Of a stretch of 64,000 nt of DNA, positions 1,114 to 23,082 are shown piece by piece. Numbering within the stretch: the stretch's first letter is position 1; every line of letters starts with the position of its first letter. The notes under the pieces are model-generated. The model was not told the origin of the DNA. It ran no database searches and worked only from the letters and a program-made list of their open reading frames with translations. Made by a program: the position numbers and the translations under genes. The DNA is from Escherichia coli (GTDB taxonomy: Bacteria; Pseudomonadota; Gammaproteobacteria; Enterobacterales; Enterobacteriaceae). The stretch lies in the NCBI RefSeq assembly GCF_003019035.1, contig NZ_CP027447.1; one strand, 5' to 3'.

Positions 1114-2346
1114 TCACCGCTCCTCCGCCAGCTCGGCAGCCTGATGCTGGCGCACGCGATTGAGCAATCCCGCCAGGGTGAAAACGACGATAACGCCCGC
1201 TAAAACGGCTAACAGATGAAACGGCAAGCGACCGCCGTTAAACCACAGCCAGCGGCCGATTTCGACTGAGACAGACATCACCATCAGGATCACCATATTT
1301 AGCGATGCGGAGACGGTCCCTTTCGGTAAGTTATTGGAAAACAGCGTAAAGCGGAATAAGGTCGGGAAAATCAAACCAATCCCGAAAGCATACAGACTGG
1401 TGCCCAGCACCGACCACAGCCAGACGTGCGGCGACAGCAGATTGCCGATAATCAACAGCGAGAGGCCGACCAGTTGAAGGGGTACGGCACGCCAGATAAA
1501 CCGCGGTTCGGTCGGATCTTTAACGAAACGCGCCACGATGGCATTCGCAACAATCACCGCGCCGAACACCGGAACCTGTGTCCAGGCGAACTGCGAAGTT
1601 GTTAAGCCGCCTGCATCGATAAGGATCACCGGCGAGACAGCCACCCAGCTCATCATCGGGATATAGCTTAAAGAGATGGTTGCTGCGCCAAAGAGGAACA
1701 GCCGATTGCAAAAGACATTACGAAAATCGCGCAAGACGCTTTTGGCGCTAAACGGAACCGCGCCGCGCTTCACCGTCTCTGGCATCGCCAACAGTAAGCC
1801 AACAAATGAGATAAAACCCATAACCGCAATGATGGCAAAAAGGACTTTCCAGTGCATAAAGTGCATCAGAGCTGCGCCGGAAAGCGGGCCGATAATCGGC
1901 GCAATCAGTACGATGGAGGTGATAATCGCCATCAACTTGATCCCTTTTGTCTGTCCGAACGCCTCCTGCACCGTGACATAACCAACGGTGGCAATAAAAC
2001 AGATACTGGTGCCCTGAATGGCACGCGCGATAAGAAACTGTGTCATAGACGTTGTGAACATTGTCGCGGCGCAGGCAAGGGTAAAAATTAGCGCCCCGGT
2101 AATCAGCACCGGCCTGCGGCCAATTCTGTCGGAAAGTGGCCCCAATAGCCACTGTAACGCCATACCGCCAGCGAGATAGAGACTGACGGCAGCAGGGGCC
2201 AGACTGACATCGGCATTAAAATCACGTACCACATTAATAATCCCTGGCTGGATTAGATCCGTCGACAGGTACGCGGCAAAGTCATACAAAATCAACGCCA
2301 TCGGGAAAAACAGCGTGGCGGCATGGCGGGCAAAAAAACGTGGCAT
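1114..2346 (-). CDS. mdtM: MFS multidrug efflux transporter MdtM
   Basis: 410 aa from ATG at 2346 ([10 protein letters not shown]...) with AAGGAG 8 nt upstream; track ORF starts 9 nt further up at TTG; MFS motifs [13 protein letters not shown]. Confidence 0.9.
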
Positions 2347-2813
2347 AAAAAACAACTCCTTGTCCGGAGAACCCCAATGGGGAAAACGAAATTCAATACC
2401 GTCGGTAATGACGAAAGGCAGGCGAGAAGGACAAATGTACTGAATTTCATGTAATCAACCACACTGCCTGTGAACACACAGACAGAGAAATACCTTCTGA
2501 CTCCAGGTCAGAATGTATAACGATTACAAATAGTCATCAGCACATTACACCTCTTGAATTGATGGATTGCATAGAAAATATACACCTTAAGTGTAATTAA
2601 AATTTGCGGTTAATCAAAAGAGCGCGGTGGAAAGGGGAATATCTGCCGGGTACAGGACATGTAAAAACACGAGCCTGTTTCCGGAAAAATGTATCGTTTG
2701 CAGAGGAACAAAAATAGCCTGGAAAGCACCTCGGGGAACGAGAAATTGCCGGGTGAGAATTGTTTTGTTAGTCGCTACAGTCGGGCCATCTTATCTACAG
2801 GTGACGGATCGCC

Positions 2814-3770
2814 ATGACAAACTTCACGACCAGTACGCCGCATGACGCATTATTTAAATCCTTTCTCACGCACCCTGACACCGCGCGGGATTTTATGGAG
2901 ATCCACTTACCCAAAGATTTACGTGAACTGTGCGATCTCGACAGCTTAAAACTGGAATACGCCAGCTTTGTCGATGAAAAATTGCGGGCGCTACATTCCG
3001 ATATTCTGTGGTCGGTAAAGACCCGCGAAGGAGATGGCTATATTTATGTGGTGATTGAACATCAGAGCCGCGAGGATATCCATATGGCCTTTCGCCTGAT
3101 GCGATATTCCATGGCGGTGATGCAGCGCCATATCGAGCGTGATAAACGCCGGCCGCTACCGCTGGTCATCCCGATGCTGTTTTATCACGGTAGCCGTAGT
3201 CCTTACCCCTGGTCTTTGTGCTGGCTGGATGAATTTGCCGACCCGGCTACCGCACGGAAGCTTTATACCGCAGCGTTCCCGCTGGTGGATGTCACTGTCG
3301 TGCCAGACGACGAGATTGTGCAGCATCGCAGAGTCGCCCTGCTGGAGTTGATCCAAAAGCATATTCGCCAGCGCGATCTAATGGGGCTTATTGATCAACT
3401 GGCAGTATTACTGGTTACAGGGTGCGCTAATGACAGCCAGATAACCGCGCTGTTAAATTACATTTTACTGACTGGCGATGAAGCGCGTTTTAATGAGTTT
3501 ATCAGCGAACTTATCCGTCGAATGCCACAACACAGGGAGCGAATAATGACGATTGCAGAGCGAATTCATAATGATGGATGGCTGTTGGGAAGGGAGAGGG
3601 GGAGGAAAGAAGGGAAAGAAGAAGGGGAAAAGAGCCTCCTCCGATTGTTGTTGCAGAATGGGGCGGATCCTGAATGGATACAACGATATACCGGACTTTC
3701 GGCAGAGCAAATGCAGGCATTAGATCAGCCCTTGCCTGAAAGCAAGCGCGATCCATGGATCGAGTACTAA
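2814..3770 (+). CDS. rpnD: Rpn (YhgA-like, PD-(D/E)XK transposase_31) recombination-promoting nuclease, intact 318 aa
   Basis: ORF track 2814..3770; family hallmarks [23 protein letters not shown] and Lys/Glu/Gly-rich C-terminus; position between mdtM and yjiR matches yjiP/yjiQ locus. Confidence 0.75.
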
Positions 3771-3797
3771 TCAGAGGCCGATGGCAAACGCAAAGCT

Positions 3798-3826
3798 GCC
3801 TGATGCGCTACGCTTATCAGGTCTAC
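3798..3826. repeat. REP-like palindromic element between convergent rpnD and yjiR
   Basis: gcctgatgcgctacgcttatcaggtctac resembles REP consensus (GCCTGATGCG...CTTATCAGGCCTAC), shortened. Confidence 0.4.
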
Positions 3827-4012
3827 ATAACCCATTAAATATATTGAATTTTAAAGATTTTGTAGACCTGGTAAGGTGTTCACATGGCATCCGGCATGAA
3901 CGAAGCGCATTTTGCCTAAGCCATGCTGGAACGTGGAGATGACCCTGCAAAGATAAAACGAGTCACACGCTATTCGTGAGAGGAAATCAGGGGGCTCGCC
4001 ACTATTTCGAAT

Positions 4013-5425
4013 TCATTCCATTGCCCGATACACGGCTTCGCCAATTTGCTTCAGTGCTTCGCGATAGGTTTCGCTGAGCGGCAAAGCGCAGTTGATGCGC
4101 AGACAATTACGGTATTTGCCGGAAGCTGAGAAAATCGAGCCTGCCGCCACCTGGATTTTCATGCGGTATAGCTGCCGCGCAACGCAAACCATATCGACCT
4201 GTTCAGGCAATTCGATCCACAGTAAAAATCCGCCTTTCGGGCGCGTAATACAGATTTCGCAGGGAAAATATTCCCGTATCCAGCAGGTATAAAGCGCCAA
4301 ATTGCGCTGATAGATCTGCCGCATCCGCCGGATATGGCGATGATAGTGACCTTCCAGCACAAACGTTGCCGCCGCCATTTGCGTGGACGGCACATTAAAG
4401 CTGCTGATGGCATATTTCATATGCAGCAGTTTATCGTGATAGCGCCCCGGTGCGACCCAACCCACGCGCAGGCCTGGAGCAATACTTTTACTGAACGAGC
4501 TGCACAACAGCACTCGCCCGTCGATATCCCAGGAATGAATGGTCCGCGGGCGCGGATACTCCGTCGCCAGTTCGCCGTAGACATCATCTTCAAAAATCAC
4601 AATATCATGACGCTGAGCGAGAGAGAGAACGGCCCGTTTGCGCGCGTCCGGCATAATAAATCCCAGCGGATTATTACAGTTTGGCACCAGAATGATGCCT
4701 TTAATCGGCCACTGCTCCAGCGCCAGTTCCAGCGCTTCAACGCTGATGCCTGTTTCTGGATCGGTGGGGATTTCAATCACTTTCACGCCCATGCCGCGCA
4801 GCATCTGCATCGAACCGTAATAACAGGGGGATTCGACCGCGACAATATCGCCCGGTTTACACACTGCCATCAACGCCAGCGACATCGAGTTATGGCAGCC
4901 GCTGGTGATGATGATGTCATCGGCGGTGACCACCGAGCCGCTGTCGAGCATCAGGCGGGCAATCTGCTCGCGCAATACCCGCTGGCCGGCTAACAAGTCA
5001 TAACCGAGAACGGTTTGCAGATTATGCTGCACCACCCGGCTTAGCTCCCGCCACAGCGGTTTCAGGCTGGGCGTTTCGACATCCGGCGTGCTTTTACTTA
5101 ACGGAACAATGGAACTGTCGCTATGCGCCTCCAGCATATCCAGCACCTGATCCCACTGGGTAATTTCCACCGGGCGCTGCACCGGACGCGTCATCGGCGG
5201 TACTGGCGGCTGGGCTTTACGTTGTGCGACAAAATAACCCGAACGCGGCTGCGGAGTGATGAGCTTCATCGTCTCCAGCGTCTGGTACGCCTGCTGCACG
5301 GTGCTAATACTGACGCCGTGCTCCTGACTCAAGCTGCGCACCGACGGCAATTTCTCCCCGTGACGATACAGCCCTTGCTCAATCCGCTCTGCAAGCAGAG
5401 TCGCCAGATGTTGATAACGCGTCAT
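4013..5425 (-). CDS. yjiR: MocR-subfamily GntR regulator with aminotransferase-like (PLP) domain
   Basis: 470 aa; N-terminal HTH (LPSVRSLSQEHGVSISTVQQAY) plus large C-terminal fold-type I aminotransferase-like domain. Confidence 0.85.
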   Translation of the reverse strand: MTRYQHLATLLAERIEQGLYRHGEKLPSVRSLSQEHGVSISTVQQAYQTLETMKLITPQPRSGYFVAQRKAQPPVPPMTRPVQRPVEITQWDQVLDMLEAHSDSSIVPLSKSTPDVETPSLKPLWRELSRVVQHNLQTVLGYDLLAGQRVLREQIARLMLDSGSVVTADDIIITSGCHNSMSLALMAVCKPGDIVAVESPCYYGSMQMLRGMGVKVIEIPTDPETGISVEALELALEQWPIKGIILVPNCNNPLGFIMPDARKRAVLSLAQRHDIVIFEDDVYGELATEYPRPRTIHSWDIDGRVLLCSSFSKSIAPGLRVGWVAPGRYHDKLLHMKYAISSFNVPSTQMAAATFVLEGHYHRHIRRMRQIYQRNLALYTCWIREYFPCEICITRPKGGFLLWIELPEQVDMVCVARQLYRMKIQVAAGSIFSASGKYRNCLRINCALPLSETYREALKQIGEAVYRAME

Positions 5426-5601
5426 GCTGTATTCCTTATTTGGACCATACAGAGGGAAAAACCGGTACAGATGAGGCTAAAAAACCGGATGCAGATGCTG
5501 TTTTAACCTGTCTGTATGTTAAATAAAAGTAATGTTTGAATCTGTATTGTGAACTGCCAAAAGGCGGATGATGAAGCCTCTGAAAGATGAGGAGGCAGCA
5601 G

Positions 5602-5766
5602 ATGGAATTTCACGAAAACAAAGCTAAAGCACCGTTTATTGGACTTGTGCAACTCTGGCAGGCAGTGAGGACCTGGTGGCTGAAAAAGCAGACCCGGCGC
5701 GTGTTACAGCAGATGAGTGATGAGCGGTTGAGGGATATTGGGTTACGCAGGGAGGATGTGGAGTGA
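5602..5766 (+). CDS. yjiS: DUF1127 small protein YjiS (54 aa)
   Basis: ATG at 5602 with AGGAGG 6 nt upstream; MEFHENKAKAPFIGLVQLWQAVRTWWLKKQTRRVLQQMSDERLRDIGLRREDVE. Confidence 0.8.
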   Translation: MEFHENKAKAPFIGLVQLWQAVRTWWLKKQTRRVLQQMSDERLRDIGLRREDVE

Positions 5767-5775
5767 TGGGGCAAT

Positions 5776-5800
5776 TTCCCTTCCCGTATGGGGAAGGGGA
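5776..5800. terminator. Hairpin between convergent yjiS and symE (possible bidirectional terminator)
   Basis: cccttccc-gtat-ggggaagggg inverted repeat in the 41-nt gap. Confidence 0.4.
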
Positions 5801-5807
5801 GAGAAAC

Positions 5808-6146
5808 TTAGCGTGGCGTTTTGCTACTAATCACCCCAATAAAATCCTGCACCTGCTTTTGTTTACGCGCCGACAGCTTGCACACCTGGCGCAGCGACAG
5901 CATCAGTTCGCTCTCTTCGGCGGCGGGTGGTTGGGCGGTGAGGACAATACAGCCTTCCATCACTTTGACATCTACCGCCGTGCCGGTGGCAAAACCGGCG
6001 GTTTCCAGCCACTGACCTTTCAGGGTGATGGCGGGAATACGGCTGTAATCCGGGTAGCGACTCGCATAACTCACGGTTAATTGACGGTTATTTGCCGGGG
6101 AGACTTCTGCTTCGAACGGTTGTGCAATAGAATGCGTGTCAGTCAT
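5808..6146 (-). CDS. symE: SymE, SOS-induced type I toxin (AbrB-fold RNA-cleaving protein)
   Basis: 112 aa [48 protein letters not shown]... matches remembered SymE; LexA-like box upstream. Confidence 0.85.
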
Positions 6147-6216
6147 GATTACTATTCCTTAGAAATAGGGATTGTGATTAGCGGTGCGGGTGTGTTGGCG
6201 CACATCCGCACCGCGC
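6138..6216 (+). ncRNA. symR: SymR antisense sRNA (antitoxin of symE), approximate ends
   Basis: By analogy with K-12, where SymR is antisense to the symE start and 5'UTR; candidate -10 TAGAAT at 6128..6133 on + strand and GC hairpin 6181..6214; boundaries not verified. Confidence 0.4.
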
Positions 6217-6223
6217 TAAATAC

Positions 6224-6239
6224 CTGGATATATCATCAG
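6224..6239. promoter_or_regulatory. LexA (SOS) box upstream of symE
   Basis: CTGGATATATCATCAG fits CTGT-N8-ACAG with AT-rich centre, about 80 nt upstream of the symE start codon. Confidence 0.5.
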
Positions 6240-6328
6240 TAAATATGGGGAAAGTCCAGCTAAAAATAGAAAATAATAAAAGCGTTACTGGAAAGATCTG
6301 GAAGAGAAATTAACGTTAATTCAGAATG

Positions 6329-6354
6329 GCCGGATAACAAAGTGTATCCGGCCT
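6329..6354. terminator. Hairpin immediately downstream of hsdR stop
   Basis: ggccggata-caaagtg-tatccggcc inverted repeat 7 nt beyond the hsdR stop codon. Confidence 0.35.
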
Positions 6355-6360
6355 TCATAA

Positions 6361-9300
6361 TTAGTTTAAAACACTCATATGATGTTCTTTAAAATTCTCT
6401 GCCTGTGCCAGCACTCCCATATAAACATCATCATTCGCTACTGGCGGGAACTTATGCTTGTGTAGAAGAAGAATAAGTTCAACTTTTAGTTTCGCTTTAA
6501 TATCATCGCGCTTACTCCAGTCAGGATATTTCGATGTGTTGTCAACCACGCTTTTCATCTCTTTTGCCAGTGACAGCATTTTTTCATCGTCATAGGTGAA
6601 CTGATATTTATCGCGCATATGAGCAAGAATGTCGAAAAACGCTTTTTCTTCAATATCAATACCTAAATCGGCCCATGTGCCCATTTCGGTTTTAATATCA
6701 TAGATAATATCGGTCATTTCCTGACTGAATGTATCGAATTCTTCACCGTTGAGTACATCATCTTCTCGCCGCTCATTATAACGATCTATAATCGCCTGGA
6801 AGCGGCGGGTGAAGTTAATCCCTTGCAACTGGTTCACTTTCTTGAAGTCGCTGATCGCTTTTTCCAGTAATTTTTGTAATAACTGGATCTTTGTTGCCGG
6901 AAGTTTGATCTTGTTAATTCGCGCCAGATAATCTTCGTCAAAAATATCGATGGATTCCGCTTTTTTATCGCCAAGAAAATAAATTTCTTCTACGCCATCA
7001 GCTTTTAGCGCTTCTGCAATCATTTCACGAACGCGTGCATTCATCTGGGTGACATCCGGTGCGTCACCTTTCGTCAGTTTGAAAACAATTGAACGAACAG
7101 CAAGATAATAGTGAATATGATCACGTTCTGTCTGTGATAGTGCTTCACTGCCGCAGCAGACGTCGTAGGCGGCTTTCATGCGTTTAACCAGTCCCATAAA
7201 ACGACGTTCAACTTTCTGGGTACGCAGAACAAATTCCGCCGCGCGGTTGAGGCAGGATAATTGCGCTTGTGGCTCACCACTAAAATAATCCCGACTGTCA
7301 AATTCGTAAAAGACTTGCCCCAACAAATCGAGATGGTTTTTAACTTCTATTACCGATTGCTGAATATCTTCAAAGTTGGTGGCATCAATGCGGGAATACA
7401 TTGCCAGTGCCTGGTTCATCTGACTTTTAATGCCGATGTAGTCCACCACTAACCCTTTACTTTTGCCTTCCAGTTTACGGTTAACGCGAGAAATGGTCTG
7501 GATAAGATTATGTTTTTGTAAGGGTTTATCAATATAGATGGTATCCAGTTCCGGGACGTCGAAACCAGTCAGCCACATATCAACAACAATGGCAATTTTG
7601 AAATTCGATTTAGCGTTTTTGAACTGCTTATCCAGCTCTTTACGATATTCTTTTGTGCCCAGTAAATCATAAAGCGCCTCGTCGTCATCTTTACCGCGCG
7701 TCATGACCATCTTCACCATTTCTGAAGGCGGTAACTCTTTCTGCTCCTGTTCCGTCAGGACGACGCCATCGGGGGCTTGCTTCACTTCAAACCAGGTAGG
7801 GCGAATAGCTTTAAGCTGGCGGTAGAAATCCCAGGCAATTTCACGGCTGGCACAAACAAACATGGCTTTGCCTTTTACGGTGGAACCTTCGGCTACGCGT
7901 TTTTCATAATGTTTAGCAAAATCTTCCGCGAGGGCTTTTAACCGATCTTCATCACCCAGTACCGCATTCATGGTTGCGGTGGCTTTTTTGCTTTCGTCGA
8001 TTTGCCACTCATTGGTGCCTGCGTTTGCGCACTCTTCGTAATACTTTTCGACTTCTTCCAGTTTGCTGGAGTCCAGGATCACTTTAGCCGCACGGCCTTC
8101 GTACACGATGCGTACAGTGATTTCATCCTGAACGGATTCGGTCATGGTGTAACTGTCGATCACCTCACCGAAGACATCGAGCGTCGCGTCAATCGGTGTG
8201 CCGGTAAAGCCAACATAGGTGGCGTTTGGCAGTGAATCGTGCAGGTATTTCGCAAAGCCATAAGTTTTGCGCACTTTTCCGCTTTCTTTATCGACGATGA
8301 CTTTCTGGTCGAGGTTAACCTGGCTGCGATGTGCTTCGTCTGAGATGCAAATGATATTGCTGCGTTCAGAAAGGAGTTCGGTGTCTTCGGTGAATTTATG
8401 GATCGTTGTCAGGAATACACCGCCACTATTGCGTCCCGCCAGTTGATTACGCAAATCTTCACGGCTGATAACAGGAACGATGGTGTCGTCGCCAATGTAA
8501 TTTTTGGCGTTGCACATTTGCGCAGAAAGCTGATCGTCCAGATCGGTGCGGTCGGTGATCAAAACAATGGTCGGGCTGGCAAACTCCACGCTCTTCATCA
8601 AAAGACGCGTTAAAAATTGCATGGTGTAACTTTTGCCACAGCCCGTTGCGCCAAAGTAGGTGCCGCCTTTACCGTTACCGAAAGGTTTACGCGCTTGCTT
8701 GATGCTGTAATAGAGTTTGCGGGCGGCATAGTACTGCGGATATCGGCAGCAAATTTTTACTTCGTGCTTAGCTTTATCCGGGAAGCAGATAAAGTTTTTA
8801 ATCACATCCAGCAGACGTACCGGATGAAACAGCCCCTGAATCATTGAGTGCAATGACGGAATTCCGTCCTGTTCACGGTTTTCATTACCGGTGACTTTGC
8901 GCCATGAGTAAAAATATTCATAGGGCGCAAACAGGTTGCCCATCCGGTTATTAACGCCATCGCTAATAATGCAGAGCGCGTTGTAGATAAACAGTTGCGG
9001 AATATCCCGGCGGTAGCGTTTACAGAGCTGCTTCCAGGCATCACCTATACTGGCTTCCTGCTCGCGCACCGCGCTTTTAAATTCAAAGACGACCAATGGC
9101 AGACCATTGATATAGAGAATGCCGTCAGGAATACGAGTCTGATTATCTTTGCCGGAGATTTTAAGCTGGTTAACAATCTTAATCCGGTTAAGCGGCGGAT
9201 TAATATAGGAGGGCGGGAGTTCTGCCGCCTGTTGCAACGGGACATCTTCGGCGTCAAATATCTGGCGCAGTGCGGCAGGTAGATGCCGGGTGTCGAGCAA

Positions 9301-9624
9301 TTCAATATAGAGATCTTTTTGTTGCCGATCGTCGCGTTTGAACAGAAAACCATTTGCCAGCCAGCGACAAAATGTTTTGTTGCTTTCATAAAGATCGGAG
9401 GCCGGAAGCGTGGTGAACTGTTTGATCAGTCGCTGAATCTCTTCTTCAGTAATGCCATCAGGCTGGTAGCGTGCCGCTAAATAATGACGGAGATCGTCTT
9501 CGATAATGACCTGATCGAGACTTGAACGAGGGACATTATCGCCGATCAGGTGTTGATATCCCTGATCCTGTAATAGTTCAATGATCGCTTGTTCTAATTT
9601 TGCTTCACTGAAAGAGAGACTCAT
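6361..9624 (-). CDS. hsdR: Type I restriction enzyme R subunit (HsdR; SF2 helicase/translocase plus nuclease)
   Basis: 1087 aa from ATG at 9624 (track starts at TTG 9636); helicase motifs YFGATGCGKS (Walker A), ICISDEAHRSQ (DEAH), VGFTGTPI. Confidence 0.9.
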   Translation of the reverse strand: MSLSFSEAKLEQAIIELLQDQGYQHLIGDNVPRSSLDQVIIEDDLRHYLAARYQPDGITEEEIQRLIKQFTTLPASDLYESNKTFCRWLANGFLFKRDDRQQKDLYIELLDTRHLPAALRQIFDAEDVPLQQAAELPPSYINPPLNRIKIVNQLKISGKDNQTRIPDGILYINGLPLVVFEFKSAVREQEASIGDAWKQLCKRYRRDIPQLFIYNALCIISDGVNNRMGNLFAPYEYFYSWRKVTGNENREQDGIPSLHSMIQGLFHPVRLLDVIKNFICFPDKAKHEVKICCRYPQYYAARKLYYSIKQARKPFGNGKGGTYFGATGCGKSYTMQFLTRLLMKSVEFASPTIVLITDRTDLDDQLSAQMCNAKNYIGDDTIVPVISREDLRNQLAGRNSGGVFLTTIHKFTEDTELLSERSNIICISDEAHRSQVNLDQKVIVDKESGKVRKTYGFAKYLHDSLPNATYVGFTGTPIDATLDVFGEVIDSYTMTESVQDEITVRIVYEGRAAKVILDSSKLEEVEKYYEECANAGTNEWQIDESKKATATMNAVLGDEDRLKALAEDFAKHYEKRVAEGSTVKGKAMFVCASREIAWDFYRQLKAIRPTWFEVKQAPDGVVLTEQEQKELPPSEMVKMVMTRGKDDDEALYDLLGTKEYRKELDKQFKNAKSNFKIAIVVDMWLTGFDVPELDTIYIDKPLQKHNLIQTISRVNRKLEGKSKGLVVDYIGIKSQMNQALAMYSRIDATNFEDIQQSVIEVKNHLDLLGQVFYEFDSRDYFSGEPQAQLSCLNRAAEFVLRTQKVERRFMGLVKRMKAAYDVCCGSEALSQTERDHIHYYLAVRSIVFKLTKGDAPDVTQMNARVREMIAEALKADGVEEIYFLGDKKAESIDIFDEDYLARINKIKLPATKIQLLQKLLEKAISDFKKVNQLQGINFTRRFQAIIDRYNERREDDVLNGEEFDTFSQEMTDIIYDIKTEMGTWADLGIDIEEKAFFDILAHMRDKYQFTYDDEKMLSLAKEMKSVVDNTSKYPDWSKRDDIKAKLKVELILLLHKHKFPPVANDDVYMGVLAQAENFKEHHMSVLN

Positions 9625-9690
9625 ATCGCGCTCCAACCCTGGCTAATTTCTGGTAAGCATTCCCGTATCAGTAGAAAACCTTACCAGAAA

Positions 9691-9710
9691 GCCCCTGATT
9701 TTACAGGGGC
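9691..9710 (-). terminator. Hairpin between hsdS stop and hsdR start
   Basis: gcccctg-atttta-caggggc inverted repeat; on the coding (minus) strand followed by tttctggtaagg; implies a separate hsdR promoter. Confidence 0.4.
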
Positions 9711-9718
9711 AAAATGCG

Positions 9719-11113
9719 TTATGCAGTTTCTGTATCGGTGTTGAGATCCGGAAGATCTTCCCGGGATAGCTCACCGGAGATGAGTTTCGGGAGCAGGGTG
9801 TCGCGGAGGTTGCTCAGGACTATTTGATTATTATTATGTGACTTGTCAATCCAAGGCATAACGATATTATAAAAAGTATTAATTATTTCAACATCTGGCA
9901 TAACTACATGTTCAGCCTCAAGAAAATATTTTGTCTGGAAGTTAGCGATTCCTGTACTTTGGTTTTGGTATTCCCACATTTTTCCATCGTTATATATTTT
10001 ATTGAGGTGTAAACTAATTATTAGCCCTATCTCTATAGATAACGGCTCAAACTTGCGACAAAAACTAGCAGGTTCAATAATACCCCCTAATCGACTTATA
10101 ATCTGTTCAGTCATGAAAATTGAACGGCCAGTTGACTGCGTTGGACTTCCTCCTGAAACTTCTATTATAATATCACCATTATTAATTTTTCTTTTTTCGA
10201 GTTTTTTGGGTTCTACCCATCTACATGGGGCAGAACTCATTTTCCCTGAAATTAACTCCGGGATATCAGTACCGCGCACTATCACTGCTTGAATTGTATG
10301 CTTTTCATCTCTGGAATCACTCCCCCAGTCACCACCAATTGTATTTTTTAGTAAACTATTAACATTTGAAAACTTCCAACCTTTAGGAATTAAACCTAAC
10401 TCCGTTTCTTCAAATTCACTTGGGAAAAGCGAGCGGATTTCCGCCGGAAGCGGTTTAAAATCTGTACTATTACGTACTTTTTGACGCAACTCGGCACGAG
10501 ATTGCAGAGCCTCCGGGATTGGATTTCCTGCATCCAGAGCGTTATCAACCACCGGATCAAAATCCACAAACCAGGATTTGAACAGGGTTTGGGACATTTG
10601 TTCTAATGACTTATTTATTACTTCATTGGATTTTAGCTTACTAAATATAAGAGTGTTTGTTTTTGCGATATGTTGGCAATATTTATCTGGTGCAAGATTA
10701 AATTCATAATCTAATATGGCTGTTTTATCACCCCTTGGCATTTTGGTGCCTTTGGATGTTAAAACAGTATGTTCGATGAATTTTTGATCCATTAATACTG
10801 ATAGAATATAATTAGAATTAATATTTTTTTTAGGACGGAATACAATTACATCGTTAGAACAGCCACCAGTTCGATCTGCAAGCCATAGTTTTTTAAAATA
10901 TGTTCTGATATTCGAGAATAAAATATCTCCAGAATGAAATTTTGTTATTTTCCCTGTGCTAGGTTTACTATTTGCTATTGATATACCTCCAAAATTGGTA
11001 AGCATATTTTCAGTTGATATGTAATCGCAAAGACTAATTTGCGATACATCAACTTTAGTAGTGATGATATCTACAACTTCTTTAAGTTTTATTTTCTCCC
11101 ACTTACTCCCCAT
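9719..11113 (-). CDS. hsdS: Type I R-M specificity subunit (HsdS), two target-recognition domains
   Basis: 464 aa from ATG at 11113 (MGSKWEKIKLKEVVDII...), overlapping the hsdM stop by 11 nt; TRD-like motif GDILFSNIRTYFKK; strongly AT-rich DNA by eye. Confidence 0.85.
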   Translation of the reverse strand: MGSKWEKIKLKEVVDIITTKVDVSQISLCDYISTENMLTNFGGISIANSKPSTGKITKFHSGDILFSNIRTYFKKLWLADRTGGCSNDVIVFRPKKNINSNYILSVLMDQKFIEHTVLTSKGTKMPRGDKTAILDYEFNLAPDKYCQHIAKTNTLIFSKLKSNEVINKSLEQMSQTLFKSWFVDFDPVVDNALDAGNPIPEALQSRAELRQKVRNSTDFKPLPAEIRSLFPSEFEETELGLIPKGWKFSNVNSLLKNTIGGDWGSDSRDEKHTIQAVIVRGTDIPELISGKMSSAPCRWVEPKKLEKRKINNGDIIIEVSGGSPTQSTGRSIFMTEQIISRLGGIIEPASFCRKFEPLSIEIGLIISLHLNKIYNDGKMWEYQNQSTGIANFQTKYFLEAEHVVMPDVEIINTFYNIVMPWIDKSHNNNQIVLSNLRDTLLPKLISGELSREDLPDLNTDTETA

Positions 11114-12722
11114 AACCCAGCACCTCCAGATTCTGGCGAATCGCACGATCCAGTTCTTCCGCCTGCTTCATCTGCTCAAACAACGTCTTCGACAATTCGC
11201 GCATTTTCGTCTCAAATGCCACGCCGTCCTCTTCCTGCTCGGCTGCACCTACATAGCGGCCCGGTGTCAGAACGTAGTCGTTATCTTTAATGTCTTGCAG
11301 GGTCGCAACTTTGCAGAAGCCAGCCTGGTCTTCATATTTTTCCAGCTTGCTGTCACCACGCGCAATCCGTGCAGCCAGTTCTTCCGGCGTACTGCGCCAG
11401 GCATGGTAGGTATCGGCGATGGTGGCAATATCTTCCGTTGTTAACTCTTTAGTTGTGCGGCTAATCATGGTGCCGAGGTTACGCGCATCAATAAACAGCG
11501 TCTCGCCCTGACGATCACGATAACCTTTGGCCGGATCGGCAGCCTTCGATTTGGTCATAAACCATAAACACACCGGGATCTGCGTGGTGTAAAACAACTG
11601 ACCTGGCAGAGCGATCATGCAGTCAATCAGATCATTTTCGATCATCTGTGCACGGATCTCGCCTTCACCGCTGGTGTTAGAACTCATCGAACCGTTTGCC
11701 AGCACAAAACCTGCTGTGCCGTTAGCCGACAGCTTGGAGAGCATATGCAAAATCCAGCCGTAGTTGGCGTTACCGGTTGGCGGCATACGATACCCAGCAA
11801 AACGTGGGTCTTTGGTTAATTCGGCTTCATTACGCCAGTCTTTCAGGTTGAACGGCGGGTTCGCCAGAATGTAGTCGGCTTTCAGGTCCGGGTGCTGGTC
11901 GCTAAAGAAAGTGTTTGCCGGTCGTTCGCCGAGGTTAGCTGAAAGACCGCGAATGGCGAGGTTCATTTTTGCCAGTTTATACGTCGTGGCAGTCAGTTCC
12001 TGACCATACAGCGCGATATCACGGCTTTTACCCTGATGGCTCTCGACAAACTTCACCGACTGCACGAACATCCCCGCCGAACCGCAGCACGGGTCATAAA
12101 TTTTGCCCTGAAAGGGTTCGAGCATTTCAGTTAACAGCGTAACCACACATTTAGGCGTGTAGAACTCACCACCGCCTTTGCCTTCAGTTGCGGCAAACTT
12201 ACCGAGGAAGTATTCGTAAACGCGTCCGACCAGGTCTTCTTTCGATAACGTTTCAACGTCAGTTTCGTGTGCCAGCGTTTCGATGTTGTCGATGGTATCA
12301 ATCAGTGACGCCAGTTTTTTGGTTTCCAGATTCTGACGGCTGAAGTAGTTGTCTGGCAGCGCGCCTTTCAGGGTTGGGTTACGTTTCTCAATGGTCGAGA
12401 GGGCGGTGTCAATACGAACCGCAATATCGTCCTGTTTGGCATTTTGTTTGATAAACGACCAGCGCGCCTCTTCCGGCAGGTAGAAAATGTTGTCCTGCTG
12501 GTAGAACACTTCCATCTCAAGGAAGTCAGCTTGCCCATCGGCAATCATTTTTTTGCGGCGTGCTTCAAACTTATCGCTGATGAATTTCAGGAACACGAGG
12601 CTCAACACCACGTGCTTGTATTCGGAGGACTCAACGCTACCGCGAAGCTGGTTTGCTGTATCCCATAATGTTTCTTCAAAGCCTTTCTTTGCTTTGGCTT
12701 TTTTAGTTGGTGCTTTGGCCAT
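11103..12722 (-). CDS. hsdM: Type I R-M N6-adenine DNA methyltransferase subunit (HsdM)
   Basis: 539 aa; SAM-binding IYDPCCGSAGMF and catalytic NPPF (ILANPPFNLKDW). Confidence 0.9.
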   Translation of the reverse strand: MAKAPTKKAKAKKGFEETLWDTANQLRGSVESSEYKHVVLSLVFLKFISDKFEARRKKMIADGQADFLEMEVFYQQDNIFYLPEEARWSFIKQNAKQDDIAVRIDTALSTIEKRNPTLKGALPDNYFSRQNLETKKLASLIDTIDNIETLAHETDVETLSKEDLVGRVYEYFLGKFAATEGKGGGEFYTPKCVVTLLTEMLEPFQGKIYDPCCGSAGMFVQSVKFVESHQGKSRDIALYGQELTATTYKLAKMNLAIRGLSANLGERPANTFFSDQHPDLKADYILANPPFNLKDWRNEAELTKDPRFAGYRMPPTGNANYGWILHMLSKLSANGTAGFVLANGSMSSNTSGEGEIRAQMIENDLIDCMIALPGQLFYTTQIPVCLWFMTKSKAADPAKGYRDRQGETLFIDARNLGTMISRTTKELTTEDIATIADTYHAWRSTPEELAARIARGDSKLEKYEDQAGFCKVATLQDIKDNDYVLTPGRYVGAAEQEEDGVAFETKMRELSKTLFEQMKQAEELDRAIRQNLEVLGYGE

Positions 12723-12785
12723 GATGAACTCTGTTCAGATAAATTGGGTCGCTATTGTAATGGTAGAGACGGCAGATTTCGCCCT

Positions 12786-13952
12786 TTAATCCATCTCCAG
12801 CTCATCAAACAACTGCAAATCTACATCCAGCAATTCCACTGCATTGCTGCGGCGAATGCCGACGTTATTTTCGATTAACAGTTCCAGTAAGCGATCGCCG
12901 TCGATAAGCGTAATGGGCGCGGCCCCCGGAAAGAGCGCCGCTTCTGCACATTTCGCTGCAAATTTCCCGGTGGTGATGAGCGTACCGCGAATGGCCTTGT
13001 GGTAAGGCAACGCTCCGCGCAACTGGTCGATATACGGTCGAGTGATGGTGTTCTGCATTCTTTTGACCTGCACCACTTCGGTAATAGTGGTGATGCCGAC
13101 CTGCACCTGACCAATCACGTCCACACCTTTATCGCCTGAGGCTTTGGTCACTTCGACCTGCTCGTAGCCCATTGCTTCCAGTAATTGACCGACCAGTTGT
13201 TCAAATTTGTACGGGTTCATCGTGCTGATTTGTTCGCGCAGCAGCTCTTTTTGCTGTTCGTTATAGCGTTTTACCGCTTCCAACAGCTCTTTACGCGGAT
13301 CGCTTTTTCGTGCAGGCAACGCTTTTCCAAGCCAGGCGCGCCCGGTATCGGTGATGCGATAGCTCATGCCTTCACGGTTAACCATGTCACGGTCGATAAG
13401 GTTATAGAGACGGGAGTAGAGCGTGCTTTTCACTGAACTTGCTGACGCGAATTTCGAATGCTGATGCAAAAAGGCCTGCCATTCCGGCAATAAATCGGCG
13501 CGGCGCGACATTTCCCGGCCAGCCAGCAGCTCAAGCAGTTGCAGAATGCCTTCCTGGTCGTCCAGTGAACGCAGCGTTTTTTCGTCATCTTGCAGGAATT
13601 TTTGCCCGCGCGAGGTGGGCTGCCAGGTATCGTCTGGCGTGCTTTCCATCAGCTCAAACTGGGGATAGTTGAGGAATAAGTAGCAGCCGTAGCTGTGGCG
13701 CGGGTTCAATATGTGATTATCGGTATCCCAAATACGACGGGCGATGTCGGCATCTTCACCCGTTAAGCGTTCGCTGATCCACAGGTCAGGTTCCGACCAG
13801 TCAACGGGTTTTTGCGGCGTTCCGGTTTGCTCGTGAATGGCAGTAATCATATTGCGCACCGCTTTCAGGGAATAGCCTGAGACGGCTTTCATCATAGCCT
13901 TAACTTGCGCATAGGTAGGAAAAAGCGGGGTAATGACTTTGTAGTTTTTCAC
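12786..13952 (-). CDS. Mrr-family (Type IV, modification-dependent) restriction endonuclease-like protein with extended N-terminal region
   Basis: 388 aa, GTG start at 13952 with AAGGGA SD; C-terminal region (GDKGVDVIG...VVQVKRMQNTITRPYIDQL...LITTGKF) resembles the K-12 Mrr catalytic domain as I recall it; N-terminal 250 aa not recognisably Mrr-like. Confidence 0.7.
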   Translation of the reverse strand: MKNYKVITPLFPTYAQVKAMMKAVSGYSLKAVRNMITAIHEQTGTPQKPVDWSEPDLWISERLTGEDADIARRIWDTDNHILNPRHSYGCYLFLNYPQFELMESTPDDTWQPTSRGQKFLQDDEKTLRSLDDQEGILQLLELLAGREMSRRADLLPEWQAFLHQHSKFASASSVKSTLYSRLYNLIDRDMVNREGMSYRITDTGRAWLGKALPARKSDPRKELLEAVKRYNEQQKELLREQISTMNPYKFEQLVGQLLEAMGYEQVEVTKASGDKGVDVIGQVQVGITTITEVVQVKRMQNTITRPYIDQLRGALPYHKAIRGTLITTGKFAAKCAEAALFPGAAPITLIDGDRLLELLIENNVGIRRSNAVELLDVDLQLFDELEMD

Positions 13953-14148
13953 GGTAATCCCTTAACGACAGCGAGGTGTTTAGTGTGCCATGTCAGGCGA
14001 GAAATTCTATTGGATGAATCAAGTCCAACTCACACATTGTCAATTTCATGGTTGATTATTCGAAACGTGATGCTATTTCCAACATCAACGCTATAATTGC
14101 AGAATAATTGTACATACATTTTTGTATATACAATTAGGGATGGCAACT

Positions 14149-14268
14149 ATGCCAATGGAGTTTGAATGGGATGCAAATAAGGCCAAAGGTAATCGGGTGA
14201 AACATGGCATCCGCTTTGAAGATGCGGTGTTAGTGTTTGATGATCCACAACGAACGGAATCGCTATGA
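14149..14268 (+). pseudogene. brnT: brnT (DUF497 toxin) remnant with internal deletion
   Basis: MPMEFEWDANKAKGNRVKHGIRFEDAVLVFDDP matches the BrnT N-terminus, stops after 39 codons; a BrnT-like C-terminus (NERNRYEHG-stop, ending 14278) is in the +1 frame. Confidence 0.55.
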
Positions 14269-14567
14269 GCATGGTTAAACATAAACGAGGGACCTCCTCT
14301 ACACTCGATGTGCAGCATGAGGCCGAACTGAAGGCGCTGGCGAATAAATCCGACGAAGATATTGATTACAGTGATATCCCACCTTCCAGCGATGAGCAAT
14401 GGTCTAACGCAGAACGCGGTAAGTTTTATCGGCCATTGAAAACTCAGGCCTCGGTGCGTATTGATTCTGATGTGATGGAATGGTTGAAGCGACCAGGTAA
14501 AGGCTATCAAACTCGCCTGAACGCAATTTTACGTGAAGCGATGCTGCGCGATCAGAACAAAAAATAA
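14265..14567 (+). CDS. brnA: BrnA-like antitoxin (ribbon-helix-helix / DUF4415 family)
   Basis: 100 aa; C-terminal ...VRIDSDVMEWLKRPGKGYQTRLNAILREAM matches BrnA signature; start overlaps the brnT remnant in typical TA fashion (alternative ATG at 14271). Confidence 0.6.
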   Translation: MSMVKHKRGTSSTLDVQHEAELKALANKSDEDIDYSDIPPSSDEQWSNAERGKFYRPLKTQASVRIDSDVMEWLKRPGKGYQTRLNAILREAMLRDQNKK

Positions 14568-14600
14568 TTCAGGCCGCCACATGGCGGCCATCATCCAAAA

Positions 14601-15557
14601 TTACTTCCTCAACCCCGCAAACGCCGCCCGAATCTCATCCTCCGGCAGCTGAATCCCGATAAACACCATCGTGCTATGCGGTTTTTCATCGCCCCATGGC
14701 CTGTCCCAGTCGGCGCTGTAGAGGCGCTGGACACCCTGGAACAGCAGGCGATTAGGTTCGCCGTCAATCCATAGCATCCCTTTGTAACGCAGTAGTTTAT
14801 CCGCCGACTCCAGCAGCAGGTTTTCCATCACGCGGGAAACTTCGCTGATATCTACCGGGTAATCCAGTTCCACCACAATCGACGAAATATCGTTTTGTTT
14901 GTCCGCGATAAAGTGGAAACGCGGTTTGGTGCTGACGACGTTCTCTTCCAGCATAAAACCGTTGGTGTTGAACAGCAGGCCCAGGTCGATGTCGCCGTGG
15001 GTGACGGTGTAGATCGGTGCACGGGCGTTGATGCGCGCCAGGCGTTCACGCAGTTTTTCTGCTTCGCCTGCGACGTCGGTTTTAGTCAGCAGAATACGGT
15101 CGGCGTAGCCAACCTGTGACTGGGCGATGGTGAACTGGTTCATCTGCTCATCGGCATGTACCGCATCCACCAGCGCAATCACGCCGTCCAGCAGGTAACG
15201 CTGGCATAAAATCTCATGGGAGAAAAAGGTCTGAATAATCGGGCCGGGATCGGCCATGCCGGTGCATTCAATCACCAGACGGTCGAACTGAATATTGCCC
15301 TTGTCGAGATTATCCAGCAGGTCGAGTAGGGCGTCTTCCAGCTCGTTGGAGCGCGAACAGCAGATGCAGCCGTTGGTCAGCGTTTTGATCTGCGTGACGC
15401 GATCGCCAATCAGTTGATCATCAACGGAGACTTCGCCGAATTCGTTTTCAATCACGGCAATCTTGTAGCCGTGTTGTTCGTTAAGAATATGGCGCAGCAG
15501 GGTGGTTTTGCCGGCGCCTAAAAAACCGGTGAGTAGGGTAACTGCAATCGGGTTCAT
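14601..15557 (-). CDS. yjiA: CobW/P47K-family GTPase (zinc-binding) YjiA
   Basis: 318 aa from ATG at 15557 (MNPIAVTLLTGFLGAGKTTLL; P-loop); track ORF extends upstream. Confidence 0.9.
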   Translation of the reverse strand: MNPIAVTLLTGFLGAGKTTLLRHILNEQHGYKIAVIENEFGEVSVDDQLIGDRVTQIKTLTNGCICCSRSNELEDALLDLLDNLDKGNIQFDRLVIECTGMADPGPIIQTFFSHEILCQRYLLDGVIALVDAVHADEQMNQFTIAQSQVGYADRILLTKTDVAGEAEKLRERLARINARAPIYTVTHGDIDLGLLFNTNGFMLEENVVSTKPRFHFIADKQNDISSIVVELDYPVDISEVSRVMENLLLESADKLLRYKGMLWIDGEPNRLLFQGVQRLYSADWDRPWGDEKPHSTMVFIGIQLPEDEIRAAFAGLRK

Positions 15558-17971: not shown

Positions 17972-18203
17972 AGTAAAACCTGGCATGTATTGATTAATAG
18001 TTGGCCGAAGCCGTTCTAGGTTTGCGTTGCGTTTGAGGAGGTAAATTGACCGCTATCCTGCAGTGATGTTGCCAGAGTTACGCGCGCGTAAAGTAAGGTA
18101 AATAACTGAGTGGTTATTTTAGGGATGTAAGCGGTCAGGAATGGCGGTGAGCGGTTGGGCAAGAATTATTCGTCGGGTGGATATGTGATTGAGATCACAA
18201 TAA

Positions 18204-18238
18204 AAATGCCCCTTCGATAATTAACCGAAGGGGCGTTC
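18204..18238 (-). terminator. Rho-independent terminator after the DSD1-like gene
   Basis: gccccttcg-ataattaac-cgaaggggc hairpin followed by T-run on the minus strand, directly 3' of the stop at 18239. Confidence 0.5.
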
Positions 18239-19459
18239 TTAGAAGAGAGTGTCTAATTCTGCCAGTACGTTGTAGTCGTCATCAGTCAATAACAACGTTT
18301 TCCATTTGTCGAAGGTCAGGCACGGATGCGATGTGCCAAACACCAGAATATCCCCCACTTGCACGTCGCTATTAGCTGACAGTTGCAACATGCAGTGCTG
18401 ATCCATAATACCTGTACTGCGAATCGCCTGTGGATCAAATGCCAGTGATTTGCCGTTGCGGTAGTGGGCGACTGGTTGCGGCAGTCCGGCGTCGAAGGCG
18501 CAATCACGCTTACCAAAATTTACCACCGCACGATCAGCTTCCGGCACCGATTGCACCATGGCGACCAGTTCCAGCGCAGATGTGAGATCGCCTGCCAGAT
18601 CGCAGGCCACAGGATCACGGGCAAGCAACTGTTGTTGTGCCGCGTCGTAGATCCCGGTGTCGTGAGTGATGTAGCAGCCAGGGCGAATAACAATGCGGCA
18701 GTTATCAGGCTTTTCTGCCGCCAGCCAGATATTGCACACCACGTCATACCAGACCGTGCCTGCTCCGGTGAGAATAAACTCGCCATCAACCAGACTTGCT
18801 ATATCACAGGCCAGTTGTGCGGCATCCCGCAGCAGAGCTTCTACCTGCGGTTGTGGATCGTCACCGTGTAAAACGCCTTCATATAACTCAAGCCCCCGCA
18901 GGCGTAACCCCGGTAATTGGGCTGCCTGTTTAGCCAGTGTCAGTGCGGCATCCCTTGAGCGGCAACCACAGCGCCCGCCGGGGACACCCAACTCAATCAT
19001 CACGTTCAGTGTCTGTTGCTGACTGGCAAAAAAGGCAGACAAAGCGCGGGCGTTCTCAATGCTGTCGATACAGCAGATAAAATCGACCGTCGGGTAATGT
19101 CGTTGCAACTGGGCAATCAACTGCATATTCGCCTTGCCGACCAGCTGGTTAACCATCAGCACTCGCTGAATACCGCTCGCCATTGCCGCACCAGCCTGCC
19201 ATGCGCTACCGACACCTATTGCCCAGGCACCAGCCGCCTGCTGCGCCTGAAAAATCCACGGCGTCATGGTGGTTTTACCGTGCGGTGCCAGTGAAACGCC
19301 GCGCGCGTCAGCGTAGCGTTGCATCCACGTAATGTTGTTCTCCAGGGCCTGCTTTTTAATGATCGCGGCAGGTAAACAGACATCTTCGGCAAGGAGATTT
19401 GCGGGCATTTGCATCAGGGCAGATTTATGGGGAACCAGAGGTTCTGAGTGGTATTTCAT
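18239..19459 (-). CDS. PLP-dependent alanine-racemase-fold enzyme, DSD1 family (D-serine/D-threonine dehydratase or aldolase-like)
   Basis: 406 aa; N-terminal TIM-barrel with PLP-lysine context LAPHGKTT; ATG at 19459. Confidence 0.7.
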   Translation of the reverse strand: MKYHSEPLVPHKSALMQMPANLLAEDVCLPAAIIKKQALENNITWMQRYADARGVSLAPHGKTTMTPWIFQAQQAAGAWAIGVGSAWQAGAAMASGIQRVLMVNQLVGKANMQLIAQLQRHYPTVDFICCIDSIENARALSAFFASQQQTLNVMIELGVPGGRCGCRSRDAALTLAKQAAQLPGLRLRGLELYEGVLHGDDPQPQVEALLRDAAQLACDIASLVDGEFILTGAGTVWYDVVCNIWLAAEKPDNCRIVIRPGCYITHDTGIYDAAQQQLLARDPVACDLAGDLTSALELVAMVQSVPEADRAVVNFGKRDCAFDAGLPQPVAHYRNGKSLAFDPQAIRSTGIMDQHCMLQLSANSDVQVGDILVFGTSHPCLTFDKWKTLLLTDDDYNVLAELDTLF

Positions 19460-19659
19460 AACATTTACCTTTTAAGTTTTTCACCGTATCGGATGTGAGT
19501 ATCATTTGTAACTAAATGAAATATAAATATTTAGTTTATTTATCTTATTATTTATGAATAAAAGTATCATAAAATCATCTGGGTTTTGCGTAGTTTTCCA
19601 CTGTTTTTCGTCCTTGTAAATGGTTAACTTGTCACCATTGCAGAAATGGAGTGACGAAC

Positions 19660-21102
19660 ATGCAGGTTGACTGGTTAATCAAAAATGTGACCGTTATCGA
19701 CGGTAGCGGCGGCCCTGAATTTCGCGGTGACGTGGCAATAACAGGTGATCGGATTGTCGATATTGCCCCTGCGCTTAACGTTACGGCGCAGCAGGTCATT
19801 GACGGGGAAGGGCGGGTGCTGGCACCAGGGTTTATCGACGTTCATACCCATGACGATATCAACGTTATTCGCATCCCGGAATATCTGCCAAAGATCAGCC
19901 AGGGGATCACTACGGTGATTGTCGGTAACTGCGGGATTAGTGCGGCGTCGGCGAAAATGAAAGGTGAAGTTCCTGACCCGATGAATCTGTTGGGGGAAGC
20001 AGAGCACTTTATTTATCCTACCGTTGAAAGCTATGCCCAGGCAGTGGAAGCAGCCAGGCCGTCACTGAACGTTGGCACGCTGATTGGTCATACGGCGCTG
20101 CGTAATAACCATATGGACGACCTGTTTCGCCCGGCGACGGTGGATGAAATTGCCGCTATGCGTGCCGACTTACGTCTGGCGTTGAGTCAGGGGGCGCTGG
20201 GGTTAAGTTCCGGGCTGGCCTATGCAACGGCATTTCAGGCGACTACCGAAGAAGTCATGGCGCTGGCGGAAGAATTAGCCGGTGAGAAGGGCGTTTATAC
20301 CACCCATCTGCGTTCTGAATTTGAACCGATTCTCGATGCCCTGGATGAGGCGTTTCGTATTGGGCGTCATGGCAAAGTGCCTGTCGTGGTTTCCCACCAT
20401 AAATGCGCCGGGGCGAAAAACTGGGGGCGGACAAAAGAAACGTTGGCCTTTTTTGACCAAATGCGTCAACACCAGGAAATTGGCTGCGATGTCTACCCTT
20501 ACTCGGCCAGTTCTTCAACGCTGGATCTCAAACAAGTCACCGACGAATTCGATATTGTGATCACCTGGTCACAAACACATCCGCAGCAGGCCGGGAAAAC
20601 ACTGGCACAAATCGCCATCGACTGGCAGATGAGTATGCTGGAGGCCGCGAAGTTGCTGATGCCTGCCGGGGCTATCTATTACAACATGGACGAGCGCGAC
20701 GTCCGCAGAGTGTTGAGTTATCCGGTCAGTATGATTGGCTCTGACGGACTGCCCAATGATCCCATGCCGCATCCGCGTTTATGGGGCGCTTTCCCTCGCG
20801 TGCTGGGTCACTATTGCCGTGATGAAGGCTTATTCCCACTGACCACGGCTATCCACAAAATGACCGGGCTTTCTGCCAGCCGTTTTCGTCTGCCTCAGCG
20901 TGGGCTGGTGAAAGTCGGCTATTTTGCGGACCTGGTGTTGTTCGATCCACAAACCATTCGTGATGTTGCCAGCTTTTCTGATCCCAAACGCCCGGCAGAT
21001 GGCATTGAGGCGGTGATGGTGAACGGCGTTATGAGCTATGGTCGCGATAAACACATTACAGGCCGTGCGGGACGCTTCCTGCGCCGCCAGACCTCACATT
21101 AA
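19660..21102 (+). CDS. D-aminoacylase (N-acyl-D-amino-acid deacylase), amidohydrolase superfamily
   Basis: 480 aa from ATG at 19660 (GGAG SD); MQVDWLIKNVTVIDGSGG..., metal-binding FIDVHTHDD. Confidence 0.8.
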   Translation: MQVDWLIKNVTVIDGSGGPEFRGDVAITGDRIVDIAPALNVTAQQVIDGEGRVLAPGFIDVHTHDDINVIRIPEYLPKISQGITTVIVGNCGISAASAKMKGEVPDPMNLLGEAEHFIYPTVESYAQAVEAARPSLNVGTLIGHTALRNNHMDDLFRPATVDEIAAMRADLRLALSQGALGLSSGLAYATAFQATTEEVMALAEELAGEKGVYTTHLRSEFEPILDALDEAFRIGRHGKVPVVVSHHKCAGAKNWGRTKETLAFFDQMRQHQEIGCDVYPYSASSSTLDLKQVTDEFDIVITWSQTHPQQAGKTLAQIAIDWQMSMLEAAKLLMPAGAIYYNMDERDVRRVLSYPVSMIGSDGLPNDPMPHPRLWGAFPRVLGHYCRDEGLFPLTTAIHKMTGLSASRFRLPQRGLVKVGYFADLVLFDPQTIRDVASFSDPKRPADGIEAVMVNGVMSYGRDKHITGRAGRFLRRQTSH

Positions 21103-21111
21103 GGAGTGAAT

Positions 21112-21501
21112 ATGAGTATTAAACGTTACGGTACGGAAGGTGGAACAGGCACTGGCGGGCAGCATTTGCCGTTTGCCAGGGCGGTTGAGGCGGGCGGCTG
21201 GCTGTACGTCTCCGGGCAAACCCCCATGAAAAACGGTGAAGTGGTAGAAGGCGGTATCGTTGAACAGTCACGACTGGCGATCCAAAACTGTGTCGACATC
21301 ATGACTGAAGCCGGTTATAGCCTGGCGGATGTGGTTCACGTGAAAGTGATCCTGACCGACGCCCGCTATTTCCAGTCATTTAATAAAGTATTCAGAGAAT
21401 TTTTTGGCGAGAATCCGCCTGCACGTATTTGTTGTGTAGCTGATCTGGTTGTCGATTGTAAAGTTGAAGTCGATGTGACCTGTTATAACGCGACCCGCTA
21501 A
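21112..21501 (+). CDS. RidA/YjgF-family enamine/imine deaminase
   Basis: 129 aa from ATG at 21112 with AAGGAG SD; starts 10 nt after the D-aminoacylase stop (operon). Confidence 0.8.
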   Translation: MSIKRYGTEGGTGTGGQHLPFARAVEAGGWLYVSGQTPMKNGEVVEGGIVEQSRLAIQNCVDIMTEAGYSLADVVHVKVILTDARYFQSFNKVFREFFGENPPARICCVADLVVDCKVEVDVTCYNATR

Positions 21502-23073: not shown

Positions 23074-23082
23074 CCGACAATG

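Follow-up and report, generated by a model that had tools for sequence, protein, structure and literature searches.

A symE/SymR type I toxin-antitoxin locus that carries an SOS box and lies directly beside a restriction operon raises the question of whether it is the familiar K-12 locus with a different neighbour or an arrangement with a regulatory logic of its own. The window analysed here, a 64,000-nucleotide stretch of an Escherichia coli genome (assembly GCF_003019035.1, contig NZ_CP027447.1), poses this question at positions 5808 to 6239, where an initial annotation had proposed an intact symE gene, a LexA-like box upstream of it and an antisense SymR, with the promoter region abutting hsdR rather than hsdS as in K-12. 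The locus is very probably an orthodox, intact symE/symR type I toxin-antitoxin locus in the long-described immigration control region (ICR) of E. coli, situated downstream of an hsdM-hsdS-hsdR cassette that is not that of K-12. The features on which this reading rests are collected in Table 1.

In the K-12 record hsdR, hsdM, hsdS and symE lie in this order on one strand, with symR (RyjC) opposite the 5′ end of symE (yjiW) and mcrBC beyond symE. Kawano, Aravind and Storz (2007; PMC1891008) reported that LexA, SymR and Lon repress SymE additively, that SymR is stable and present in about 10-fold excess, and that it works mainly on translation, requiring neither RNase III nor Hfq. Their Figure 1 aligns alleles from K-12, O157:H7, CFT073, UTI89, Shigella and Salmonella, and the paper already noted that SymE genes are associated with restriction-modification systems.

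Table 1. Position and description of the symE/SymR features and neighbouring genes in the window
Feature	Position	Strand	Description
yjiR	4013..5425	−	
yjiS (DUF1127)	ends 5766	+	
Inverted repeat	5778..5798	.	Between convergent yjiS (ends 5766) and symE (ends 5808); folds at −15.5 / −19.9 kcal/mol, z ~ −2.6
symE	5808..6146	−	112 aa plus stop; ATG 6146..6144, stop at 5808; from ORF list and translation
symR −10 TAGAAT	6128..6133	+	Inside symE ORF; 7 nt upstream of SymR 5′ end (6141); identical to K-12
SymR	6141..6217	+	77 nt; full-length match to Rfam RF01809 (all 77 model positions; E = 2e-17; 93.1 bits, gathering threshold 61)
symE Shine-Dalgarno AAGGA (putative)	6156..6160	−	9 nt before ATG, within SymR-complementary region; read from sequence
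SymR hairpin 2	6181..6214	+	GC-rich 3′ stem-loop, SymR terminator hairpin; Rfam RF01809 model positions 41-74; also in minimum-free-energy fold
LexA box TACTGATGATATATCCAGGT	6222..6241	−	Core CTG-N10-CAG at 6224..6239; 19/20 identical to K-12 yjiW/symE box
Conserved block upstream of LexA box	6242..6277	−	End of constant symER module; K-12 homology stops at 6277
Hairpin after hsdR stop codon	6324..6356	−	GGCCGGATA...TATCCGGCC; REP-like; −21.3 kcal/mol, z = −5.0; without U-tract
hsdR	6361..9636	−	1091 aa; Pfam HSDR_N, SWI2_SNF2, T1R_D3-like, T1RH-like_C; 3′ end faces symE
hsdS	9719..11146	−	Pfam Methylase_S
hsdM	11103..12722	−	Pfam N6_Mtase, HsdM_N
Mrr_cat nuclease	12786..13952	−	
brnT (truncated)	14149..14255	+	
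brnA (intact)	14265..14567	+	
yjiA	from 14601	−	

The symE gene and its antisense RNA

The symE reading frame, which had been called intact, is so throughout its 112 codons and contains the expected domain (Pfam PF08845 SymE_toxin, AbrB/MazE-like; 75 bits against a cutoff of 29). Its product is identical to K-12 SymE at 101 of 109 positions (93%), and the counterpart ORF in matching E. coli genomes is annotated symE. The two proteins part at the C-terminus, where the window reads ...ISSKTPR and K-12 ...IAGKQKVA, because the downstream edge of K-12 homology at 5829 falls within the last symE codons. The segment from 5772 to 5828, a gap between blocks of K-12 homology that is without K-12 counterpart and carries the inverted repeat at 5778..5798, replaces these codons, so that the two genomes share no homology over the final ~4 SymE residues and the 3′ flank of the gene. 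In RefSeq the K-12 protein is named a nucleoid-associated protein, and PMC11894785, summarising Thompson et al. 2022, states that SymE binds DNA nonspecifically and condenses the nucleoid, and that RNase activity was not found; the label 'toxin/endoribonuclease' is thus now disputed.

Opposite the 5′ end of symE lies SymR, the sole Rfam family match in the first 20 kb of the window, and this full-length match to RF01809 bears out the antisense arrangement that the initial annotation had put together from a hairpin and a candidate promoter hexamer. SymR occupies the position of the annotated K-12 symR and has the same length of 77 nt and the same start 3 nt beyond the start codon. Its complementarity to symE takes in the 5′ UTR, the ATG with the codon that follows, and the Shine-Dalgarno sequence, for which AAGGA at 6160..6156 is the candidate. 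It folds into the two hairpins known from K-12 (−41.4 kcal/mol, z = −7.2), with a few base changes in the loop of hairpin 1, and the GC hairpin previously marked at 6181..6214 is hairpin 2 of the Rfam model.

The candidate −10, TAGAAT, corresponds to a hexamer that has been mutated in K-12. There the symR promoter was located within the symE ORF, and the silent change of CATTCT to CACTCC on the symE strand abolishes SymR (PMC1891008); this CATTCT hexamer stands at the complement position of TAGAAT at 6128..6133. A consensus promoter and terminator scan of 5700..6450 returned no symE-strand promoter, no symR promoter and no intrinsic terminator, so that identity with K-12 and the published −10 mutation were used in place of the scan to place the promoter hexamers.

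The LexA box and its allele

The LexA-like box proposed upstream of symE also holds in its coordinates, with the core CTGGATATATCATCAG located at 6224..6239 and one of the 20 bases differing from the validated K-12 box. In both genomes 4 nt separate the box from the 3′ end of SymR, and its distance to the symE ATG is 75-94 nt on the upstream side. Read along symE, the box is TACTGATGATATATCCAGGT in the window and TACTGATGATATATACAGGT in K-12; the two alleles thus differ as ...ATATCCAG... and ...ATATACAG..., and the single substitution adjoins one half-site, turning ATACAG into ATCCAG on the symE strand and CTGT into CTGG on the plus strand. The bare CTG-N10-CAG pattern, which occurs 26 times in the 64-kb window against 13 expected (not significant), was rejected as evidence of a LexA site; as it is uninformative, 20-mers were scored by the Berg-von Hippel heterology index, using an ad hoc matrix of 27 E. 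coli SOS boxes from which the symE box was left out. With this ad hoc matrix 6222..6241 is the best LexA-like site on both strands of the 64 kb, at an index of 8.8 compared with 10.9 for the next unrelated site, and the K-12 symE box scores 7.2.

The rise from 7.2 to 8.8 that accompanies the substitution beside the half-site, again on the ad hoc matrix, could mean that this allele is too weak for SOS control and that symE is transcribed constitutively, restrained by SymR and Lon alone. K-12 symE is itself a weak responder, being listed as LexA-dependent with a heterology index of 7.9, an induction by AZT of 1.5-fold and a LexA dependence of 2.5-fold (PMC11228462), and strain SCU-301 has a further change in its box, a provisional version of which has an index of 10.7-13.8. 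We nevertheless consider constitutive transcription unlikely. An index of 8.8 falls within the range of accepted SOS boxes scored with the same matrix (polB, ftsK and dinG among them), and CTGG half-sites are present in the ruvAB and cho boxes as well. Among complete E. coli genomes, 335 carry the exact 56-mer around the window box and 435 that of K-12, so that the window box is a common natural allele; the same box allele is present in E. whittamii, and its CTG and CAG half-sites are near-invariant across genera.

An orthodox locus would be bound by LexA and transcribed from the symE promoter upon DNA damage, as LexA regulation of yjiW/symE has been reported for K-12 (PMC1891008, PMC11228462). 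Because the symE −35 and −10 hexamers fall below the threshold of the consensus scan, how the box sits on the promoter can be given as a putative layout: the −10 would lie within the LexA box, and the conserved block at 6242..6277 presumably carries the candidate −35, TGGACT (6258..6253).

Conservation of the module in other genera

A degenerate SymR pattern, scanned over one genome per species, gave 38 loci distributed over Escherichia, Citrobacter, Pseudocitrobacter, Klebsiella, Raoultella, Kluyvera, Enterobacter, Lelliottia, Leclercia, Kosakonia, Pantoea and others. The complement of the start codon, CAT, stands at SymR positions 4-6 in all 38, and a SymE-like ORF of 95-115 aa is present in 33 of the 36 loci with a readable ORF. 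A full CTG-N10-CAG, starting 4-10 nt past the SymR 3′ end, occurs in 34 of the 37 loci with sequence there (from other Enterobacterales); in the alignment its two half-sites show little or no variation, in contrast to the spacer. At the symR −10, 37 of the 38 aligned loci have TAGAAT or TACAAT. The combination of ORF, antisense RNA and LexA-like box thus recurs in about ten Enterobacterales genera.

The fold of SymR is retained along with these elements. Over the 38 sequences the structure pairs of the Rfam model are paired in 92.9% of cells, compared with 20-50% in slid controls, and in hairpin 2 the figure is 97.6%, with changes on both sides at 8 of its 14 pairs. Hairpin 1 is mostly invariant across the loci and hence uninformative on covariation, its invariance being partly forced by the search pattern and by overlap with the symE ribosome-binding site and start codon. 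The K-12 model gains modest comparative support from the near-constant half-sites, from the conservation of the symR −10 and from the compensatory pair changes in the hairpin of SymR.

Three loci carry a truncated symE ORF: Candidatus Pantoea persica (L005; 42 aa), Pseudocitrobacter vendiensis (L039; 30 aa) and Leclercia adecarboxylata (L034; 83 aa). SymR is kept in each, and the CTG-N10-CAG is full in L034 and L039 and degenerate in L005. These genes may be pseudogenes that have retained their antisense RNA.

The existence of such truncated genes in other species (30, 42 and 83 aa), taken with the 6 synonymous and 6 nonsynonymous codon differences that separate the window symE from that of K-12 over 106 codons, might suggest that symE is a decaying remnant, retained only by its position between selected genes. 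This is scarcely credible for the window, where the ORF has its full length, the domain is intact, and the start codon, Shine-Dalgarno, SymR and LexA box are all in place; decay is also at odds with the 95-115 aa ORF kept by 33 of the 36 readable loci.

Boundaries of the symER module

BLAST alignment with K-12 yields three homology blocks around the locus, at 1827..5771 (mdtM to yjiS), 5829..6277 (symER) and from 14601 (yjiA) on. Since 5829..6277 is all that the two genomes have in common between 5771 and 14601, symER is, on this alignment, a conserved islet in a variable region. Its upstream edge at ~6277 lies 36 nt beyond the LexA box. Within the islet, the stretch that begins at the LexA box, takes in SymR and enters the ORF is nearly identical in the window, K-12 and strain LR-28, and the orientation relative to yjiR/yjiS and to the hsd operon is that of K-12. 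Outside it the neighbours differ: K-12 has the hsdS 3′ end upstream (R-M-S order) and mcrBC, yjiV and yjiT downstream of symE, whereas the window has the hsdR 3′ end upstream and yjiS downstream.

That the symE promoter abuts hsdR here, unlike in K-12, had been noticed correctly, and it follows from the order hsdM-hsdS-hsdR of the upstream type I operon. The junction had further been taken to mark one breakpoint of a cassette exchange. A boundary at ~6277 is indeed present; a second lies at 5829. The symER core is found in 2,859 of 5,426 complete E. coli genomes; of the 5,426, 967 have the window-type junction with hsdR and 918 the K-12-type junction with hsdS. In the sampled genomes with other cassettes only the first 72-78 nt of a probe spanning 6200..6560 matched, so that by sequence matching the constant symER module recurrently gives way to a variable hsd cassette at ~6277. 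The placement of an SOS box directly beside a restriction locus, which the initial annotation had singled out, is true of the window and equally true of K-12, and the arrangement with hsdR is common rather than unusual.

The ICR of the window is 99.7% identical overall to that of strain SCU-301, the closest genome, yet the best matches to 5560..6400 are at 96.8-97.4%. When the two strains are compared over 5401..14700, 41 of the 43 differences fall within 5438..7008, and one of the differences, at 6229 (T versus C), is inside the LexA box. This clustering suggests a local recombination tract comprising yjiS, symER and the 3′ part of hsdR and ending inside hsdR. The lower identity over 5560..6400 had raised the idea that the window might come from outside E. 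coli, an idea rejected in view of the 99.7% identity of the remaining ICR and the local clustering of the mismatches.

The neighbouring restriction cassette

The genes to either side of symER mark the region as the ICR: yjiR and yjiS stand on one side, and hsdRSM, a nuclease of Mrr type, brnTA and yjiA on the opposite side. Cassette variation in the ICR was reportedly described by Sibley and Raleigh in 2004. A 2025 EcoSal Plus review (PMC12707154) describes an ICR holding type IA, IB, ID and type IV enzymes together with brnAT, symE-symR and rpn toxin-antitoxin loci, and limits its type I systems to IA, IB and ID. The window conforms to this description without substantive difference, with a variable locus between conserved anchors that contains a type I system, an Mrr-type type IV nuclease, brnTA, symE-symR and rpn; its brnT is truncated.

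HsdM of the window is 24-27% identical to the K-12 type IA protein in tblastn matches. A second type I family, of R-M-S order and distinct from the window family, is presumably IB, and the upstream cassette is accordingly assigned, by elimination and gene order, as a putative type ID system, the family of StySBLI, EcoR9I and KpnAI.

Several features of the region are recorded here in their own right. The longest hsdS ORF, which opens with a GTG at 11146, has 44 nt in common with the end of hsdM (11103..11146); because the HsdS annotated in SCU-301 is shorter (464 aa), the true hsdS start probably lies further downstream. In brnT only residues 1-34 align to the 95-aa BrnT of LR-28, the truncation being due to a ~162-bp deletion, and SCU-301 is annotated in the same state; the BrnA antitoxin gene is intact and 99% identical. 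An intact 318-aa ORF at 2814..3770 takes the place of the K-12 rpnD pseudogene, with a counterpart in LR-28/SCU-301 that is annotated as an Rpn family recombination-promoting nuclease. The ~6 kb at 18155..24067, in the btsT-tsr interval, are without K-12 counterpart and in LR-28/SCU-301 are annotated as encoding an amino acid deaminase, a D-aminoacylase, a RidA family protein, a sodium:solute symporter and a MurR/RpiR regulator.

Between the hsdR stop codon and the conserved block lies the REP-like hairpin at 6324..6356, at which the consensus terminator scan called no intrinsic terminator. At the same place K-12 has an unrelated hairpin and T-run after hsdS, so that each cassette has its own 3′ hairpin. 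As the window hairpin has no U-tract, transcripts from hsdR may run on toward the symE promoter.

This hairpin bears on the proposal that a functional link ties symER to the type I operon upstream and that their juxtaposition has been selected, whether because SymR silences hsd read-through or because SOS-induced SymE aids restriction alleviation. In 12 of the 38 loci, from several genera, the immediate upstream neighbour of the symE promoter is a type I operon, always co-oriented, and these operons belong to three type I families: the K-12-like IA, the second R-M-S family and, in Citrobacter sp. On2M, the window-type M-S-R. Replacement of hsdSMR in CFT073 by a resistance cassette altered expression of the flanking yjiW; the authors, however, ascribe this effect to the resistance cassette (PMC8287963). 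In the other 26 of the 38 loci the SymR/symE/LexA-box module stands beside unrelated housekeeping genes, or beside yjiA without hsd, which argues that the module works without restriction genes alongside. Co-orientation in three families could also easily arise by chance, and we judge a selected coupling to be quite improbable. The more particular proposal, that symER forms a fixed downstream frame for hsd cassettes of three unrelated type I families and is functionally tied to restriction, is very doubtful. Were such a tie to exist, constitutive SymR might silence hsd read-through, and SOS-induced, DNA-coating SymE might shield chromosomal DNA that is damaged or has been repaired from the restriction enzyme encoded next to it. 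On the orthodox reading the hsdR junction reflects a cassette replacement upstream of the constant symER module and not a special regulatory design.

Discussion

Every sequence element of the K-12 locus is present, intact and conserved in the window. By homology with the K-12 model, LexA would sit on 6222..6241 over the symE promoter and keep its transcription off, and DNA damage would lead to LexA cleavage and the production of symE mRNA. SymR, expected to be made constitutively from the promoter in the symE ORF (−10 at 6128..6133) and to be stable and abundant, would pair with the symE 5′ UTR, Shine-Dalgarno and start codon, blocking translation and modestly lowering the mRNA, and Lon would degrade SymE. 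Any SymE that escapes this control would inhibit growth, probably through DNA binding; an endoribonuclease was first proposed, and nucleoid condensation is now reported. By analogy with K-12, the strain of the window should likewise express symE and SymR, bind LexA at the box and produce an active SymE.

The tisB/istR-1 and dinQ/agrB systems share this general plan, in that a LexA box governs transcription of the toxin and a small RNA represses its translation. TisB and DinQ are small membrane peptides, and their small RNAs are divergent or adjacent and have limited pairing. SymE differs from them as a 112-aa soluble protein of the AbrB/MazE fold, and SymR as a cis-antisense RNA with full complementarity, which is stable where theirs are labile. 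Both tisB and dinQ are listed alongside symE in PMC11228462.

The locus is therefore one already known, in an ordinary arrangement, and represents no new kind of system. Its main use lies in the correct annotation of an intact symE/SymR module with its LexA box, while the module edges at ~5829 and ~6277 help to map the exchange of restriction cassettes between strains.
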